64,000 nt of DNA. It comes from an uncultured Planctomycetota bacterium (GTDB lineage Bacteria > Planctomycetota > Planctomycetia > Gemmatales > Gemmataceae). Both the position numbers and the translations under genes were made by a program. The notes beneath the pieces were generated by a model that was given only the letters and a program-made list of their open reading frames with translations, was not told the origin of the DNA and made no database searches. Where the stretch lies: assembly GCA_963849325.1 (NCBI GenBank), contig CAWKHF010000003.1:32001-96000 (forward strand). Reading direction: 5' to 3'. This document shows positions 31,371 to 64,000 of the stretch, in pieces (the stretch's first letter is position 1; the number at the start of each line of letters is the position of its first letter).

Positions 31371-32476
31371 GGCCGACGCCACGTCCGGCCCCGCGCCCGG
31401 AGGAGCCGGGGCTCGGAGTTCCAGGCCATCCTGCGGATGACACGGGCCGAGTACGACGAGGCCTGCGCCTACCTCCGCTCGCTCCTCATCCCTCCCGGCG
31501 TCGCCGTCACCCTCAACGGCGGGGCACTGCGGCCGCGCAGCCCGTCCACGCCTTCGAGGCGAGCCTGGAGACGGAGGCTGCCGACGGGGAAGGAATCCTG
31601 CGCCGCCGGGTCCGCAAGGCCCGGGTGGAACTTTACGACCCGCTGCCCGGCGAGACGCCCACCCTGTACGAGTTGGGGCTGCCGGTGGTCGAGACGGCCG
31701 ACCGGTGGCACGTCAACGTCGGCCAGAAGGTGCCGCTGACCTTGAGCCGCGATAACGTGCCGCCTGCTTACCTGCGGGCACTGCGTACCCTGGTTCTCAA
31801 CGAGATGCACCGGCGGCTGAGTGAGGAGGACGTAAATGCCTCCTGGGTCCAGCAGGCCACGTCCGACCCCGAATGCTCACACGTGGCCATCACGACGTTC
31901 CTGGACCTCCGCTTCGGGACGAACCGGGCCTCCTACGACCCGACCGACCCCGAGGCGAACAAGGCGGTCCAGGCGGCCGGCGGCACCATCGTAACTGGGA
32001 GGATGCTCAGCCGGCAGCAATGGCAGAAGGCGCGGGAGGCCGCGGCCATCGAGCCGGCCAACCGGGTCAAGCCGACCGCCAGGCCGTACAGCCTGGACCC
32101 CGCCGCGCCGGCGGCGGAGGTGATACCGCCGGGCCAATGGAGCCCGGCAGTCCAGAACGTCGCCGACTACGCGACGTTCCTGGCGTGGGAGCTCATGGGG
32201 GTGACACTCACCGTCACCGTCGTCCGCACCGCCAACAACTTCCTGGCCTGCTACGGCGCGGGACGGCTGGACCTCAACCTGCTCCGCCTCGGCGACGGCT
32301 GGTTCGAGCGAGGCGCGGGCGAGGACGTGGACCGACTGCTGATCCACGAGTTCGGCCATCAGTTCTCCGGCGACCACCTCAGTGACGAGTACCACGACGC
32401 CCTGTGCCGGCTTGGGGCGAAGCTCAAGCGGCTGGCCCTGGAGCGGCCGGAAGCCATCCGACCTTTCCTGCGCTGA
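31371..32476 (+). pseudogene. 5'-truncated protein with a C-terminal HExxH metallopeptidase-like motif
   Basis: GSEFQAILRMTRAEYDE... (frameshift near 31545) ...LLIHEFGHQFSGDHLSDEYH. Confidence 0.55.
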
Positions 32477-59712: not shown

Positions 59713-60009
59713 TCACTCGCCTGCAGGGCCGGCAGCGCCGCGGGGCGGATACAATTCATCGACGTGGGACCGCAGCTCTTCACCGAGTGGTGGGACCAGT
59801 TCAAGCAGTTCCCCCGGCTGACAACGAAGGAACCGGCATAGTGCCTCGATGTACCGGCTGTTTGACACGATCCCAGGTCGCACCGAGGCGAGCGACGAGA
59901 GCACCGAGGTCGAGATGCCCGTTTGCTCGCTCACTTCTTTCCAGGTAATCTTCCGACCCTCGGCCTCTTCAAGGTCTCGAAGCCGCCGGACCAGGTGAAA
60001 GCGTATCAC
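59713..60009 (-). CDS. Cro/C1 (HTH_26-like) regulator
   Basis: AAGGAGG RBS before GTG; ITWKEVSEQTGISTSVLSSL...IEALCRFLRCQPGELLE. Confidence 0.78.
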   Translation of the reverse strand: MIRFHLVRRLRDLEEAEGRKITWKEVSEQTGISTSVLSSLASVRPGIVSNSRYIEALCRFLRCQPGELLELVPPLGEELRSHVDELYPPRGAAGPAGE

Positions 60010-60499
60010 GCAACCTCCTTGCGGATTCCCGGGAAGATCGACCGTTGGACAGGCCAGCCAAGTCGGCATGATAATAATCCTTCCACAGACAATTTCTTGT
60101 GGGTGGAAGAAATTCCTAGTGACGGAAGGACTCCTCTCGTTTATCCTATTCTCCAACCACGCCCGTGGCGAGTCGTGCGGAGGGTATGTACCTGGCGCGC
60201 GGGGTTCTAAATTCGTAGTGCCTGAACCCGGGCTTCTTGTCCCGACTGTTGGCAGGCGTCTGCTGAATCCGGAACAACTGAAGGGTTGCCGCCTTCAGCC
60301 GGCAATTCACCAGGTTCAAGGGTGCCATTGCGCACCGGAACTGGTGAATTTCCATGAAGGCGGCAACCCTTCTTGCTGTCCCCACCGCGGGGCAGCGGCA
60401 CCCTGGCCGACCGCCCAGGGCCGTGACCGTGGACGTGACACTCGGCGACTCTTTGCCGGGGAATTCTATCCATCCACTCGCCTGCCTGACAGCGGCCCA

Positions 60500-60900
60500 G
60501 CGCACCGAGGAACGACGGCACGCGCTCGCCCAGGTTAAGGAGCAGTCCGACCTCCGGCAGCGGCTGCAGGCGCTGTCCGCCGAGAGCGCACCGCTCGCGG
60601 CGGCAATGGCGAGAGCCCGTGAGTTCGTCGCCGGCTGGGCCACGGTCGCCCAGATCCTGGACGCCGCCGAGGAGGACGAGCTGCGGCTCCTGTTGCAGCA
60701 CTTCGTCGAGGTGATCGAGCTGGCCCACGAGTCGGCCGACGGCAAGACGGGCACCTACGCGCTGCGGCTTTTCCCGGAGGTGCGGCCGCTCGACCCGCCG
60801 CACGGGCCGGAAAACGAAGGCGGGCCACCCGACCCGACATCCGGGGGGCGGCCCGCGTTAACCGAGGCCGTCGAAACTTGTGGCGACCAGCAAAAAGCTC
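60500..60900 (+). pseudogene. C-terminal remnant of a large serine recombinase, reading into the tRNA 3' end
   Basis: Coiled coil, then EEDELRLLLQHFVEVIEL...GTYALRLFP; the frame continues as APRVGLEPTT (antisense tRNA). No catalytic domain. Confidence 0.6.
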
Positions 60901-60935
60901 CCCGAGTAGGACTCGAACCTACAACAAACCGGTTA

Positions 60936-61599
60936 CGTTTGCCCCCATGTTTCCATGGGGAACGGACTATCTCATCACCCCAGAGGGGTGCAGGGCGCTC
61001 GAGGCTGGGTTATTGGATGGGCTCCTCACCAGCTAGTCTCTGCACCTTCCCGGCTACTGATTGCCCTTCGCCGGGCTTGGCTCAGGATTGCCGCCACCCA
61101 AAGTGCTGCGGGTTCCCTGCTAGGCCAACCGTTTCAATTCCTTGAGTAAACAAGGAATCTGCAGGTCTTCCTCCGTGGCGTGGTAAAACGTCACCGTACT
61201 GGCTTTGGCCAGGTATTGCTGAATCAGCAATAACTCCGACCTTTTCACCACAGAGTAGGGGAGGATGAGATCGCATAGAGCCAATCATGCCTGTTTTCGA
61301 TAGACGCGGATGCGATAAGAAGGCCGCGTCGATCTCGGCCTTGGAAGCGGGCCTTTCGTGGAGTAGGCGATGACGTTGTCCACGAGGATGGCAACGACCT
61401 TCCGGTGCATGGCTTCGCTAATACTCTCAATCGTCACACGGCAACTCATGCCGCGTTCCGAATCTCGATGCACCGTCACGCAGCCTTCGCCATCAATAAT
61501 TCCCGCCAGCCAGGCAATGTCGGCAATACCCATCTCCCCTGCCTAGTTTAATTCACCCTGTTTTCCACTGGCCATTGCTGACCAGCGCTGCGATTCTTC
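60936..61599 (-). ncRNA. Group I intron (664 nt) at tRNA position 35/36
   Basis: Exon-terminal U with P1 GCUGU/GCAGC, terminal omega-G, P2 GCAA tetraloop, P3 CAGGGUG/CGCCCUG, Q AAUCCUGAGC, R GCAGAGACUA, S GAGAUAGUCC, P8, and P9 CCCCAUG-GAAA-CAUGGGG. Confidence 0.93.
61120..61533 (-). pseudogene. Single-motif LAGLIDADG homing endonuclease inside the intron (137 codons, in-frame TGA at 61285-61287)
   Basis: IAWLAGIIDGEGCV; past the TGA the same frame continues LALCDLILPYSVVKRSELLLIQQYL to TAG at 61120-61122. Confidence 0.88.
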
Positions 61600-61688
61600 A
61601 CAGCCGGTTGCTCTACCATTGAGCTATCGGGGAAAATCAGACGAGGGTGTTGGCCGGGCAGATCCCATCCACACGCTCGCCCGCATAT

Positions 61689-61773: not shown

Positions 61774-63120
61774 ATGACGGTTCGGGTGACGGTCATCGGG
61801 GCGGGACTGGCGGGACTGGCGGCGGCGGCGGCGCTGGCGGAACGCGGCTTCGAGGTGACAATGCTCGAAGCGCGAAACCGAGCCGGCGGCCGGGCCAGCT
61901 CCTTCGCCGACGCCGCCAGCGGACAACTGATCGATACCTGCCAGCACGTCAGCATGGGCTGTTGCACCAACTTCGCCCATTTCTGCCGCACGGTCGGCAT
62001 CGCGCACCTGCTCCAGCCTCAACCCGCCCTCTGGTTCGTGACGCCGGATCGGCGCAGGAGCCGCCTTGCCGCTGGTCCTCTGCCGGCCCCGCTGCACCTG
62101 GCAGGCAGTTTCCTGCGCGGCCATTATCTCACCCTGGCCGAGAAGATGCGCATCGCCTGGGGCCTGGCCTGTCTGCGGCGCAGGCCGATCGAGGACGATC
62201 CGCCTTTCCTCGACTGGCTGACGCGCCATCGACAGACGCCGCGCACCGTGACCCGGTTCTGGGGACTCGTGCTGACCAGCGCGCTCAACGAGACGCCCGA
62301 ACGCATCGGCCTCCGCTACGCGCGCAAGGTCTTCCTCGACGGATTCCTGGGCCATCGCCGAGGCTACGAGGTCCAACTACCGCGCGTGCCGCTCGGCCGA
62401 CTTTACGGCGAGGAGCTGCAAGCCTGGCTCAACCGTCATGGCGTTCGTCTCCGCATGGAGTGCGGCGCACGGCGATTGCGGTTGAACTCGGGACGGATCG
62501 AGGGTGTCGAACTGCGAAACGGCGAGAGGACGGTCGCCGATTGGTATATCGCGGCGGTGCCGTTCGACCGCCTGCTCGACCTGTTGCCAGCAGAGTTGAT
62601 CGAACGGGAACCCTACTTCAAGAACCTGCGGCGGCTGGAGACCTCGCCCATAACGAGCGTCCATCTCTGGTACGATCGACCGATCACGCGGCTGCCGCAT
62701 GCCGTGCTGGTCGATTGCACCGGCCACTGGCTCTTCAACCGTGGCGAGGCGGCCCCCGGCGAGTATTACGTCCAGGTGGTCGTCAGTGCCGCCCGGCAGT
62801 TCCGCGGGATGGGACATGCGGAGGTGCAACGTCTGGTCGTCGAAGAACTGGCCCGGCTGTTTCCGAAGGCGGCGACGGCGACGTTGCGACGCGCGCGCGT
62901 GGTGACCGAGCATGCCGCCACGTTCAGCGCGGTGCCGGGCGTCGATCGGTGGCGTCCGACCCAGGCATCGCCCCTGCCCAACCTGTTCGTCGCCGGCGAT
63001 TGGACGGCAACGGGCTGGCCGGCGACGATGGAAGGGGCCGTCCGCAGCGGCTACCTCGCCGCCGAAGTCGTGCTTGAGCGTTGCGGTCGAAAAGAACGTC
63101 TGCTCCAGCCGGACCTCTAG
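61774..63120 (+). CDS. hpnE: Hydroxysqualene dehydroxylase HpnE (FAD-dependent, hopanoid pathway)
   Basis: VIGAGLAGLAAA, GGRASSF, IDTCQHVSMGCCTN, SALNE and AGDWTATGWPATMEGAVRSG. Confidence 0.88.
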   Translation: MTVRVTVIGAGLAGLAAAAALAERGFEVTMLEARNRAGGRASSFADAASGQLIDTCQHVSMGCCTNFAHFCRTVGIAHLLQPQPALWFVTPDRRRSRLAAGPLPAPLHLAGSFLRGHYLTLAEKMRIAWGLACLRRRPIEDDPPFLDWLTRHRQTPRTVTRFWGLVLTSALNETPERIGLRYARKVFLDGFLGHRRGYEVQLPRVPLGRLYGEELQAWLNRHGVRLRMECGARRLRLNSGRIEGVELRNGERTVADWYIAAVPFDRLLDLLPAELIEREPYFKNLRRLETSPITSVHLWYDRPITRLPHAVLVDCTGHWLFNRGEAAPGEYYVQVVVSAARQFRGMGHAEVQRLVVEELARLFPKAATATLRRARVVTEHAATFSAVPGVDRWRPTQASPLPNLFVAGDWTATGWPATMEGAVRSGYLAAEVVLERCGRKERLLQPDL

Positions 63121-63147: not shown

Positions 63148-64000
63148 TTACCCCTTCGTGACCGCGCGAAGCTGGGTCGAGGACAGGTCCACACGGAAGG
63201 CGCGGGCGGGGATGGACGTGAACAAGTCCCGATGCGCGGCGGGGATGTCCAACTCCTCCAGACCAACAAGCAAGCCCTCGGCATTGACCCGACCGGCCAC
63301 AAGGAAACGACAGCGGCCGCAGCGCAGGGCCTCGAGCGCCTCGATCATCCGGGCTTCGTTGTCGCCGTAGAAACGGGGCTGGACGATGCGGGCGGCGGTG
63401 TCGGCGCCGACGACGAACACGGCGCCGGGGAAAAGGCGCGCCTTCTCGGTGAAGGTCGGCGCCCGCGTCAACCACAGCGGCGCCCGCCAGGCGAAGGGAG
63501 ACAAACGCCGACGGACTTCCTCGTCGGCCAGCGGTGGCTTGTCCGCGTTGGCGATGCCCAGCTCGAAGGCGACCGGCGCGCCCGCGAGGGCCGAGGCCAC
63601 TCTCGCCAGGATACAATGACCATCGTGAAGGGGGTTGAATGAACCCGGCAGCAGCACCGTCGGCCGGGGACCGTCGCCACGCATCCGACCGTCTGCCTCT
63701 ATACATACGGCCGAGAGCCGGCCTGCCAGGAACGCGGCCAGGGCATCCTCGGCAGGCCATGTTTCCCGGACAACCTCTTCGCCGGGTAGCAGCGCGACCG
63801 GGACGCGCTCCGCAAGGTTAAATGCCTCGGCCATCGCGTTGAGCAGTACCCGGTCCAGGACCATCTCCTCGCCTTCCCGGTCGCGCGCCTCGCGCGTAAG
63901 CGTCAACGAATAGGTCGAGGTTTGCCGGTCGGTCTGAATGGCGAGATGGAAGCGATGATCGCCGCGCTTGGGTCGATCCGAGCGCAAGCTGGCGGTGCAA
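63148..64000 (-). CDS. Nucleotidyltransferase-like (HxGH) protein; 5' end outside window
   Basis: LLPGSFNPLHDGH, NADKPPL, VVGADT and DLSSTQLR. Confidence 0.78.
   Translation of the reverse strand, partial: CTASLRSDRPKRGDHRFHLAIQTDRQTSTYSLTLTREARDREGEEMVLDRVLLNAMAEAFNLAERVPVALLPGEEVVRETWPAEDALAAFLAGRLSAVCIEADGRMRGDGPRPTVLLPGSFNPLHDGHCILARVASALAGAPVAFELGIANADKPPLADEEVRRRLSPFAWRAPLWLTRAPTFTEKARLFPGAVFVVGADTAARIVQPRFYGDNEARMIEALEALRCGRCRFLVAGRVNAEGLLVGLEELDIPAAHRDLFTSIPARAFRVDLSSTQLRAVTKG

Follow-up and report, generated by a model that had tools for sequence, protein, structure and literature searches.

In a 64,000-nucleotide (nt) stretch of DNA from an uncultured Planctomycetota bacterium of the family Gemmataceae (assembly GCA_963849325.1, contig CAWKHF010000003.1, forward-strand positions 32,001 to 96,000), which we refer to as the window and whose numbering we use throughout, we found a tRNA-Asn(GUU) gene interrupted in its anticodon loop by a group I intron. 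Within this intron, a homing endonuclease gene (HEG) lies outside the peripheral loops, at the junction of P3 and P4 in the ribozyme core. Endonuclease open reading frames (ORFs) are said to occupy loops in which they do not disturb folding (PMC3984707; PMC1995217). The element is very likely a tRNA-Asn intron that carries a single-motif LAGLIDADG cassette of the I-CreI type at the boundary between the joining segment J3/4 and P4, closed by a helix of its own, and the core junction appears to tolerate this insert of 430 nt. The coordinates are collected in Table 1.

The cassette is a discrete unit inserted at the J3/4-P4 boundary, exactly between AAUU (ending at 61550) and the P4 strand CAGGG (starting at 61119), as can be seen from related introns that lack it. 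The ORF-less tRNA-Asn intron of another genome of the same phylum (L136, in G431) reads ...GGGUGAAUU/CAGGGAAGCC..., with AAUU running unbroken into CAGGG at the slash. In addition, a soil-metagenome contig (run X3, record 8) joins 61119 directly to 61550, skipping exactly 430 nt; it differs from the window at four of the 172 positions of 60948-61119, and by five differences and two gaps over the 80 positions of 61550-61629. The junction in this contig contains no letters that fit both sides and no direct repeat, and it sets the limits of the cassette. Contigs from a soil DNA run (X1) and from a run of a marine RNA library (X2) diverge from the window at 61119 and continue as the reverse complement of ...CAGGGUGAAUU. 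All of these ORF-less relatives read ...GUGAAUU/CAGGGAA... without interruption. It had been claimed in an earlier note, made from the sequence of the window, that a normally contiguous element (GAAUU-CAGGGAA) is split here by about 430 nt; L136 and the X1, X2 and X3 contigs show that this is literally correct. The placement of the insert between P3 and P4 is likewise borne out by three compensatory pairs in P3, by the complete pairing of P4, and by the contiguity of this region in the ORF-less relatives.

The same note named an alternative that would have overturned this placement, namely that the hexamer CAGGGG at 61541-61536, upstream of the ORF, is the true 5′ strand of P4, with the ORF then lying in the loop of P5 or separating P4 from P5. 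Pairing of this hexamer with UCCUG at 61087-61083 is possible, and a near-repeat is present in the window, reading CUAGGCAGGGGA upstream and CUAG-CAGGGAA downstream. However, the hexamer is present in only one of 13 aligned introns, whereas the downstream CAGGG is invariant in all 13 except for one-sided variation at its last base. Pairing of the upstream copy would also make J3/4 12 nt long, AAUU is joined directly to the downstream CAGGG in the ORF-less relatives, and the minimum free energy (MFE) fold pairs the downstream CAGGG with a probability of 0.965. We therefore regard an upstream P4 as exceedingly improbable and place the cassette before P4. The near-repeat was also considered as a target-site duplication; its upstream half is unique to the window, and we treated it as chance.

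The cassette is bracketed by two complementary arms, CUAGGC (61546-61541) and GCCUAG (61125-61120). Their coordinates, their perfect complementarity and the presence of the stop codon within the second arm were all verified, and the proposal that the ORF is extruded by its own helix is supported both by thermodynamics (fold probabilities) and by covariation in homologous introns. In the fold of the window's own sequence, the six pairs have ensemble probabilities of 0.977-0.992. Across the 13 introns, the helix (alignment columns 94-103 with 521-529) is 96.6% paired; four of its pairs never vary, three show one-sided changes and two show two-sided changes. The same order of elements recurs in three distant lineages, whose endonucleases are only 30-38% identical to those of the present family: AAU(U/G)AAA, an arm, the ORF, and a complementary arm adjoining P4, with arms of unrelated sequence. 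By simple arithmetic, a 6-bp match at two fixed positions would arise by chance about once in 4096. Because all 13 homologues have the helix at this place, and three lineages have it with unrelated arms, chance is an untenable explanation. Two further loci in an anchored-helix scan (L072 and L093) are AT-rich and were treated as chance.

The structure drawn by hand for P1-P9 is 97.7% paired on the 13 homologous introns, compared with 28-44% after a shift of the 3′ partners by one to three columns, a contrast that is inflated because the structure was drawn from the same sequences on which it was scored. Changes on both sides occur in 22 of its 59 pairs, which was reached by none of 500 shuffles of the 13-intron alignment, in which the introns are related and include near-duplicates (L051, L055 and L059; L056 and L057). 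Compensatory support comes from P3, P6, P6a and P8; P4 and P7 vary little or not at all. All seven pairs of P3 form in every sequence (probability 0.973 for 61560-60991 in the window's fold); P4 is fully paired in 13 of 13, with one pair varying on one side (probability 0.965). The five pairs of P1 are invariant in all 13 sequences, as are the five pairs of P7 in the 12 sequences that reach it. P9 was excluded from the covariation count, and the outer P2 pair (columns 54-72) was scored as unpaired in 12 of 13 sequences, in both cases because MAFFT shifts the helix by one column. Independently of the alignment, the MFE fold of a 669-nt exon-plus-intron RNA recovers P1, P2, P3, the closing helix, P4-P6, P8 and P9, with a z-score of −4.39 and none of 20 shuffles folding equally well.

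A few details of the core vary among the relatives. J3/4 reads AAUC instead of AAUU in L048, L052 and L054. In the ORF-less relatives, U61550 would pair with A61082 as the first pair of P4; we dropped this as a maintained pair, since the U is replaced by C in three of the 13 cassette-bearing introns. The extra hairpin between P7 and P3 is doubled in L136. It recalls the P7.1/P7.2 of subgroups other than IC3, the usual one for bacterial tRNA introns, and for this reason we place the intron in no subgroup.

Table 1. Features of the interrupted tRNA-Asn gene, its intron and cassette, closing-helix arms in related introns, and neighbouring genes. Positions are those of the window.
Feature	Position	Strand	Details and basis
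tRNA-Asn(GUU) gene	61633-60898	minus	interrupted after U35 by a 664-nt group I intron
tRNA-Asn 5′ exon	61600..61633	minus	acceptor stem, D arm, anticodon stem to U35; direct reading
tRNA-Asn 3′ exon	60898..60935	minus	U36, T arm, acceptor stem to discriminator, no CCA encoded; direct reading
Group I intron, 664 nt	60936..61599	minus	first base G, terminal G 60936; RF00028 and homologues
P1	61587..61604	minus	exon GCUGU 61604-61600 with internal guide GCAGC 61591-61587; U.G at splice site
P2 hairpin	61568..61585	minus	GCAA tetraloop; 6/7 pairs change on both sides; in MFE fold
P3 5′ strand	61554..61560	minus	CAGGGUG; pairs with 60997-60991
J3/4	61550..61553	minus	AAUU; adjoins CAGGG directly in L136 and in the 430-nt-skipping contig
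HEG cassette, 430 nt	61120..61549	minus	AAA, 5′ helix arm, LAGLIDADG ORF, 3′ helix arm
Closing helix, 5′ arm	61541..61546	minus	CUAGGC; MFE pairing with 61120-61125
LAGLIDADG gene, single motif	61120..61533	minus	137 codons, ATG 61533, TAG 61122-61120; translation
Closing helix, 3′ arm	61120..61125	minus	GCCUAG; last Ala codon and stop codon
P4	61083..61119	minus	CAGGG 61119-61115 with UCCUG 61087-61083, enclosing P5
P6 and P6a	61044..61081	minus	compensatory pairs 1/3 and 3/6; both helices 100% paired
P7 5′ strand	61034..61038	minus	GACUA; pseudoknot with UAGUC 60969-60965
Extra hairpin between P7 and P3 3′ strand (P7.1-like)	61004..61033	minus	4/5 pairs compensatory, 100% paired
P3 3′ strand	60991..60997	minus	CGCCCUG; alignment and pair probabilities
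P8 hairpin	60977..60989	minus	3/5 pairs compensatory
P7 3′ strand and P9 hairpin	60943..60969	minus	P7 3′ strand 60969-60965; P9, GAAA loop, 60960-60943; Rfam alignment, MFE fold
Arms in L054			CUAGGCA / UGCCUAG
Arms in L048			CUAGGCC / GGCCUAG
Arms in the Acidobacteriota set			CUAGG-G-CGGU / GGUCGCCUAG; one bulged G
Arms in L024			as Acidobacteriota set, one A-U changed to G.U
Arms in L052			as Acidobacteriota set, C-G changed to U.G and G.U to A-U
Arms in L058			CUAGAGAUAU / AUGUCUCUAG; 10 bp, then P4 CGGUG
Arms in L062			GUAGUAUCAG / CUGAUACUAU; 10 bp, then P4 CGGGG
Arms in L025 (also L060, L061)			CCGUUUCGU / GCGAAAUGG; 9 bp, G.U allowed, then P4 CGGGGG
HTH_26 (Cro/C1-type) protein	59713-60156	minus	
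Flavin amine-oxidase-type oxidoreductase	61774-63120	plus	PF01593, E 5.2e-49
Cytidylyltransferase-like protein	63148-63987	minus	

The encoded protein carries the motif LAGIIDGEG at residues 9-17, of which G11, I12, D14, G15, E16 and G17 are invariant in 19 sequences, and every invariant residue of the family is retained in the window's copy. In LAGLIDADG enzymes, the conserved acidic residue that closes the motif, at the end of helix 1, has a catalytic role. Intact homologues are mostly 137 amino acids long (137-138) and 53-70% identical; 21 proteins among 42 candidates reached E ≤ 0.01, one of them being the window's own fragment of 82 amino acids. Of 17 homologues, 16 match PF14528 at E ≤ 0.01, a 70%-identical one scores 29.5 bits against it, and the family profile matches I-CvuI with an E-value of 6.2e-5. 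An AlphaFold2 model, made for the intact homologue P0002 (70% identical) and not for the window's broken ORF, has a pLDDT (predicted local distance difference test) of 94.1 and an alpha-beta-beta-alpha-beta-beta-alpha order, and the top Foldseek matches of P0002 are I-CreI, I-CvuI and I-MsoI (E 5e-7, template-modelling score 0.66-0.71, probability 1.00). The ratio of nonsynonymous to synonymous substitution (dN/dS) is 0.09-0.21 in the five pairs, out of eight, that have unsaturated dS, including 0.21 for the window against L048, which indicates that the family is under purifying selection. Decay is seen in relatives too, with an in-frame TAG in L056 and L057 and frame-breaking gaps in L055 and L059. 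The intact relatives, the retained residues, the predicted fold and the low dN/dS suggest that the family encodes a selected, functional protein and that the stop in the window's copy is probably recent.

The 5′ exon ends in ...CUGU and the 3′ exon opens with UAACC; compared by eye, the joined exons equal the unsplit tRNA-Asn(GTT) found at the corresponding locus of G007, a genome of the same genus. To this tRNA the 5′ half is 97% identical by BLAST (in an alignment that extends 3 nt into the intron) and the 3′ half 100%. The terminal G at 60936, followed by TAACCG, is kept in 12 of the 12 homologous introns that reach this site. ARAGORN called no tRNA at this locus. The RF00028 match (56.6 bits against a gathering score of 50, E 9.7e-13) is confined to 61162-60943; the alignment cannot span the cassette and mis-threads P1-P3 onto the tail of the ORF. 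It is therefore likely that routine annotation misses both the tRNA and the true extent of such an intron. The GC content is 0.505-0.57 in 200-nt windows across 61100-61599, which also include the 5′ part of the intron and P4-P5, compared with 0.66-0.73 in the flanks.

Besides the shared origin of structure and alignment and the relatedness of the aligned introns mentioned above, several points weigh against our reading of a LAGLIDADG-bearing, splicing-competent intron. The reading frame in the window is interrupted by an in-frame TGA at codon 83 (61287-61285), at which the residue in 18 relatives is Val (14), Ala (3) or Ile (1); an assembly error at this codon, which is covered by no contig of the compared runs, is possible. 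The window protein alone scores 20.5 bits against PF14528, below the cut-off of 22.5 (E 6e-4), so that the LAGLIDADG identity claimed earlier is clear at the level of the family (16 of 17 homologues, I-CvuI and an I-CreI-like predicted fold) and less so for the window's copy taken by itself. Its closing helix is the shortest, with 6 bp followed by an A.G mismatch at the seventh position, whereas relatives have 7-10 bp. A second, divergent and intron-less tRNA-Asn(GTT) is present in a 12-tRNA array of the same genome (C12:838633-838706); splicing may therefore be dispensable to the cell, whose viability does not speak for activity. No run with more than 0.15 of the words of this sequence turned up in the run search, and RNA runs contributed contigs of relatives only. 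The contigs of the four runs (X1, X2, X3 and X7) belong to relatives and document allele states, not splicing, and coverage of both ends of a cassette-bearing relative in the RNA library X7 is not proof of transcription. Lastly, the three-way junction, the mutual influence of translation and folding, the dimeric state of the enzyme and its target site, all described below, are inferred.

Some of these points could be taken to mean that the locus is a dead tRNA pseudogene, in which the core insert abolished splicing and the array copy supplies tRNA-Asn. The intron-less second gene and the broken HEG would fit this, as would the fact that J3/4 normally measures 3 nt and that a 162-nt insert at this place in the yeast intron aI5beta is termed noncanonical (PMC2396411). 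On the other hand, the exons are identical to those of the functional-looking orthologue in G007, all core helices pair, and the U.G of P1, P7 and the terminal G are intact. The architecture is also kept in 13 introns of diverse hosts, with compensatory changes and purifying selection on the ORF, none of which would be expected of dead elements. A pseudogene is thus decidedly unlikely. It is also conceivable that the protein doubles as a maturase, needed because the core is interrupted, given that some LAGLIDADG proteins, such as I-AniI, are maturases as well (PMC1995217) and that the yeast intron with the J3/4 insert relies on protein factors binding that region (PMC2396411). However, the ORF is broken and the ribozyme intact in the window and in L055, L056, L057 and L059, and we consider a maturase role very improbable. 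In the window, the endonuclease gene is broken by a single TGA, and ribozyme and exons are intact; judged from the sequence, the intron probably lost its mobility recently and is probably still able to splice, which would be an early stage in a cycle of gain, decay and loss.

The same intron and cassette were found at the same position of tRNA-Asn in two metagenome-assembled genomes, L023 (labelled Pyrinomonadaceae) and L024 (labelled Acidobacteriota), and in at least 10 metagenome contigs (L048, L050-L057 and L059), within a related-stretch search in which 80 of 368 stretches were kept. An eleventh contig, L049, carries the cassette, and its 5′ exon lies beyond the contig end. The exon sequences differ between groups of carriers, and the hosts are therefore diverse. 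Close to the window's own genome, the exon halves abut in seven of 10 genomes of the same genus, and an uninterrupted tRNA-Asn(GTT) was called in all seven; the remaining three (completeness 93, 82 and 64) gave no tRNA-Asn match. None of the 60 relatives searched contained a cassette match longer than 35 nt. When 401 sampled genomes of the phylum were searched for the 3′ pattern, the only true matches were the window's genome and the cassette-less G431; a pattern match in G455 (L138) has no surrounding intron and was set aside as chance. Short matches to the intron core in G054, G010, G008, G006, G009 and G053 are probably other group I introns.

An intron-less allele from another organism is documented by an X3 contig that skips exactly 664 nt between 60935 and 61600. 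Three allele states therefore exist in nature: the uninterrupted gene, the gene with a cassette-less intron and the gene with a cassette-bearing intron. The patchy occurrence and the low GC content of the intron fit a horizontally acquired, optional element. The description of the intron as mobile in the earlier note agrees with this presence/absence polymorphism at one site, but the window's copy, with its stop codon, is probably no longer autonomous.

Instead of the intron, the cassette itself might be the autonomous homing unit, with an endonuclease that cuts the P3/J3-4/P4 core DNA of cassette-less introns in any host gene. The same AAA-plus-helix cassette is present at the same ribozyme position in tRNA-Asn, in a phage major head gene and at two other loci. 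Moreover, the window's ribozyme has as its nearest known relative an allele without the cassette, which lacks exactly 430 nt, with no junction repeat to explain a precise deletion, and HEG invasion of pre-existing introns is an accepted origin of such composites (PMC3984707). If this were true, the gene would pass from one intron to another, in tRNA and phage genes alike and independently of intron homing, and the closing helix would have evolved as an adaptor to render core insertion harmless. However, the empty core site is palindromic over GAAUUC only, whereas the exon site is, by reading, symmetric over about 19 bp, and by eye the core site shows no resemblance to the exon junction. Precise loss could be explained by selection alone, because only exact excision keeps the ribozyme working, and the shared position is equally well explained if a lineage of introns, already carrying the cassette, moved from gene to gene. 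For these reasons we consider cassette homing unlikely and prefer homing of the whole intron into tRNA-Asn. An I-TevII-type argument (PMC3984707) from a resemblance between the cassette flanks and the exon junction was dropped after comparison by eye, with 4-5 matches in 13 in both orientations.

If the closing helix forms, it would juxtapose U61550 and C61119, so that P3, J3/4 and P4 could take their normal places; the ORF would then project as the third arm of a junction, with the conserved AAA as a linker. The 5′ arm occupies the positions 8-13 nt ahead of the start codon, and the 3′ arm includes the stop codon. A ribosome translating the ORF would pull the helix apart, and in the folded ribozyme the start region would be concealed. 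Since the helix holds the stop codon and adjoins the ribosome-binding region, translation probably excludes ribozyme folding and vice versa, and translation would probably alternate with splicing. By reading, six of the eight positions that flank U35 in the anticodon arm are symmetric about it, and the intron lies directly after U35. An intact enzyme, acting as a homodimer, may cut the intron-less tRNA-Asn gene near this near-palindromic arm, and repair would copy the intron in.

Among known systems, the tRNA-fMet intron of Synechocystis sp. PCC 6803 is also an anticodon-loop group I intron, of about 655 nt, with a homing endonuclease of about 150 amino acids (PMC1995217). It differs in its host tRNA and in its enzyme: I-Ssp6803I belongs to the PD-(D/E)XK type, as the earlier note had said, in agreement with a 2007 compilation where it is the sole HEG in a bacterial tRNA intron (PMC1995217). 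The bacterial LAGLIDADG ORFs listed in that compilation are all in large-subunit (LSU) rRNA introns, in peripheral regions (PMC1995217). The LSU introns of Thermotoga, Synechococcus C9/C1, Simkania and Coxiella resemble the tRNA-Asn intron in size (650-775 nt) and in encoding single-motif LAGLIDADG proteins of 143-189 amino acids, whereas they reside in 23S rRNA, their ORFs are described as peripheral (for example, beginning in P6) and sometimes reach into the core, and they form no closed cassette at J3/4-P4 (PMC1995217).

The yeast mitochondrial COX1 intron aI5beta is closer in position, as its J3/4, normally 3 nt separating the P3 and P4 5′ strands, is broken by an insert of 162 nt (PMC2396411); it is the one precedent for a large J3/4 insert that we found in the searchable literature. 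That insert is AU-rich, non-coding and bound by Pet54p, with a degenerate endonuclease ORF elsewhere in the intron (PMC2396411), whereas the insert in the tRNA-Asn intron is the endonuclease gene itself, with a conserved closing helix. I-CreI, I-CvuI and I-MsoI share with the present family a single motif, a length of about 140-170 amino acids, the same predicted fold and a group I intron as host; they are only 10-20% identical in sequence, are encoded in chloroplast rRNA introns, and are homodimers, as the present enzyme may be. ORF-less anticodon-loop introns have a similarly compact core and an A-rich J3/4 adjoining P4, but in them P3-J3/4-P4 is contiguous, and the extra P7/P3 hairpin belongs to the tRNA-Asn intron.

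Within a search to which subscription journals were mostly inaccessible, we found no literature description of a group I intron in a bacterial tRNA-Asn, of an endonuclease gene at J3/4, or of a LAGLIDADG gene in a bacterial tRNA intron. The element adds tRNA-Asn to the bacterial tRNA hosts of group I introns, and a LAGLIDADG gene to the contents of such introns. It also shows a gene of 430 nt kept at J3/4-P4 across diverse hosts and host genes, with a covarying closing helix. The matched natural alleles with and without the cassette offer a system for studying how core junctions tolerate inserts, and bear as well on how an invading gene is neutralised and how endonuclease genes first enter introns.

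Several related loci deserve mention. In L062 (344-1829), a related J3/4-cassette intron that appears to lack P2 lies in a phage or prophage gene for a major head protein; its exon halves match phrog_9953 at positions 4-106 and 108-231 (E 2.5e-33 and 1.2e-35). In L025 (1480-2088), the endonuclease frame passes the closing helix and continues through P4-P8, with 202 codons from stop to stop. In L049 (1-147), the end of a different, putatively HNH-like ORF (...CANCHREAH...) takes the place of the region upstream of the internal guide; this second ORF, inside which the contig begins, continues across P2 and P3 as far as the UAG in the closing-helix 5′ arm, its stop codon, and the intron may carry two endonuclease genes. 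In L058 (1540-1700), a second group I core (P4-P7-like) without flanking ORFs is found about 150 nt past the 3′ part of the first intron, and two introns may lie close together.

More distant LAGLIDADG ORFs, 25-33% identical, are present in L027-L037, L068, L077, L080, L081, L085, L086, L093 and L098. Many of those from L027 to L098 end in ...UAG fused to a conserved AGAC(U/C) before P7, which is the classical P6-side position and unlike the J3/4 cassette. Several of these P6-side loci lie within a tRNA whose 5′ part reads ...CAGCCUUUAAAU.

In the window, the interrupted tRNA gene is flanked by the HTH_26 protein gene on one side and by the oxidoreductase and cytidylyltransferase-like genes on the other (Table 1); three ORFs in 60068-60803 matched no Pfam family at E ≤ 0.001. 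Elsewhere in the same genome, a group I intron without an ORF interrupts tRNA-Leu(UAA) between U34 and A35 (L002 1420-1690, minus strand; G000:C2, about 959.7-960.0 kb); it scores 35.1 bits, below the Rfam gathering score, and ARAGORN made no tRNA call there. The genome also has two dense tRNA arrays, one with 12 genes (G000:C12, about 838.4-839.6 kb) and one with 13 (G000:C4, about 433.7-435.2 kb). Both intron-bearing tRNAs have a second copy without an intron in these arrays: Asn(GTT), with an anticodon stem different from the main copy's, and Leu(TAA). In the whole genome, ARAGORN called 92 tRNAs, including one with the anticodon TTA ("tRNA-Stop"), a tRNA-SeC(TCA) and two with odd anticodon loops.

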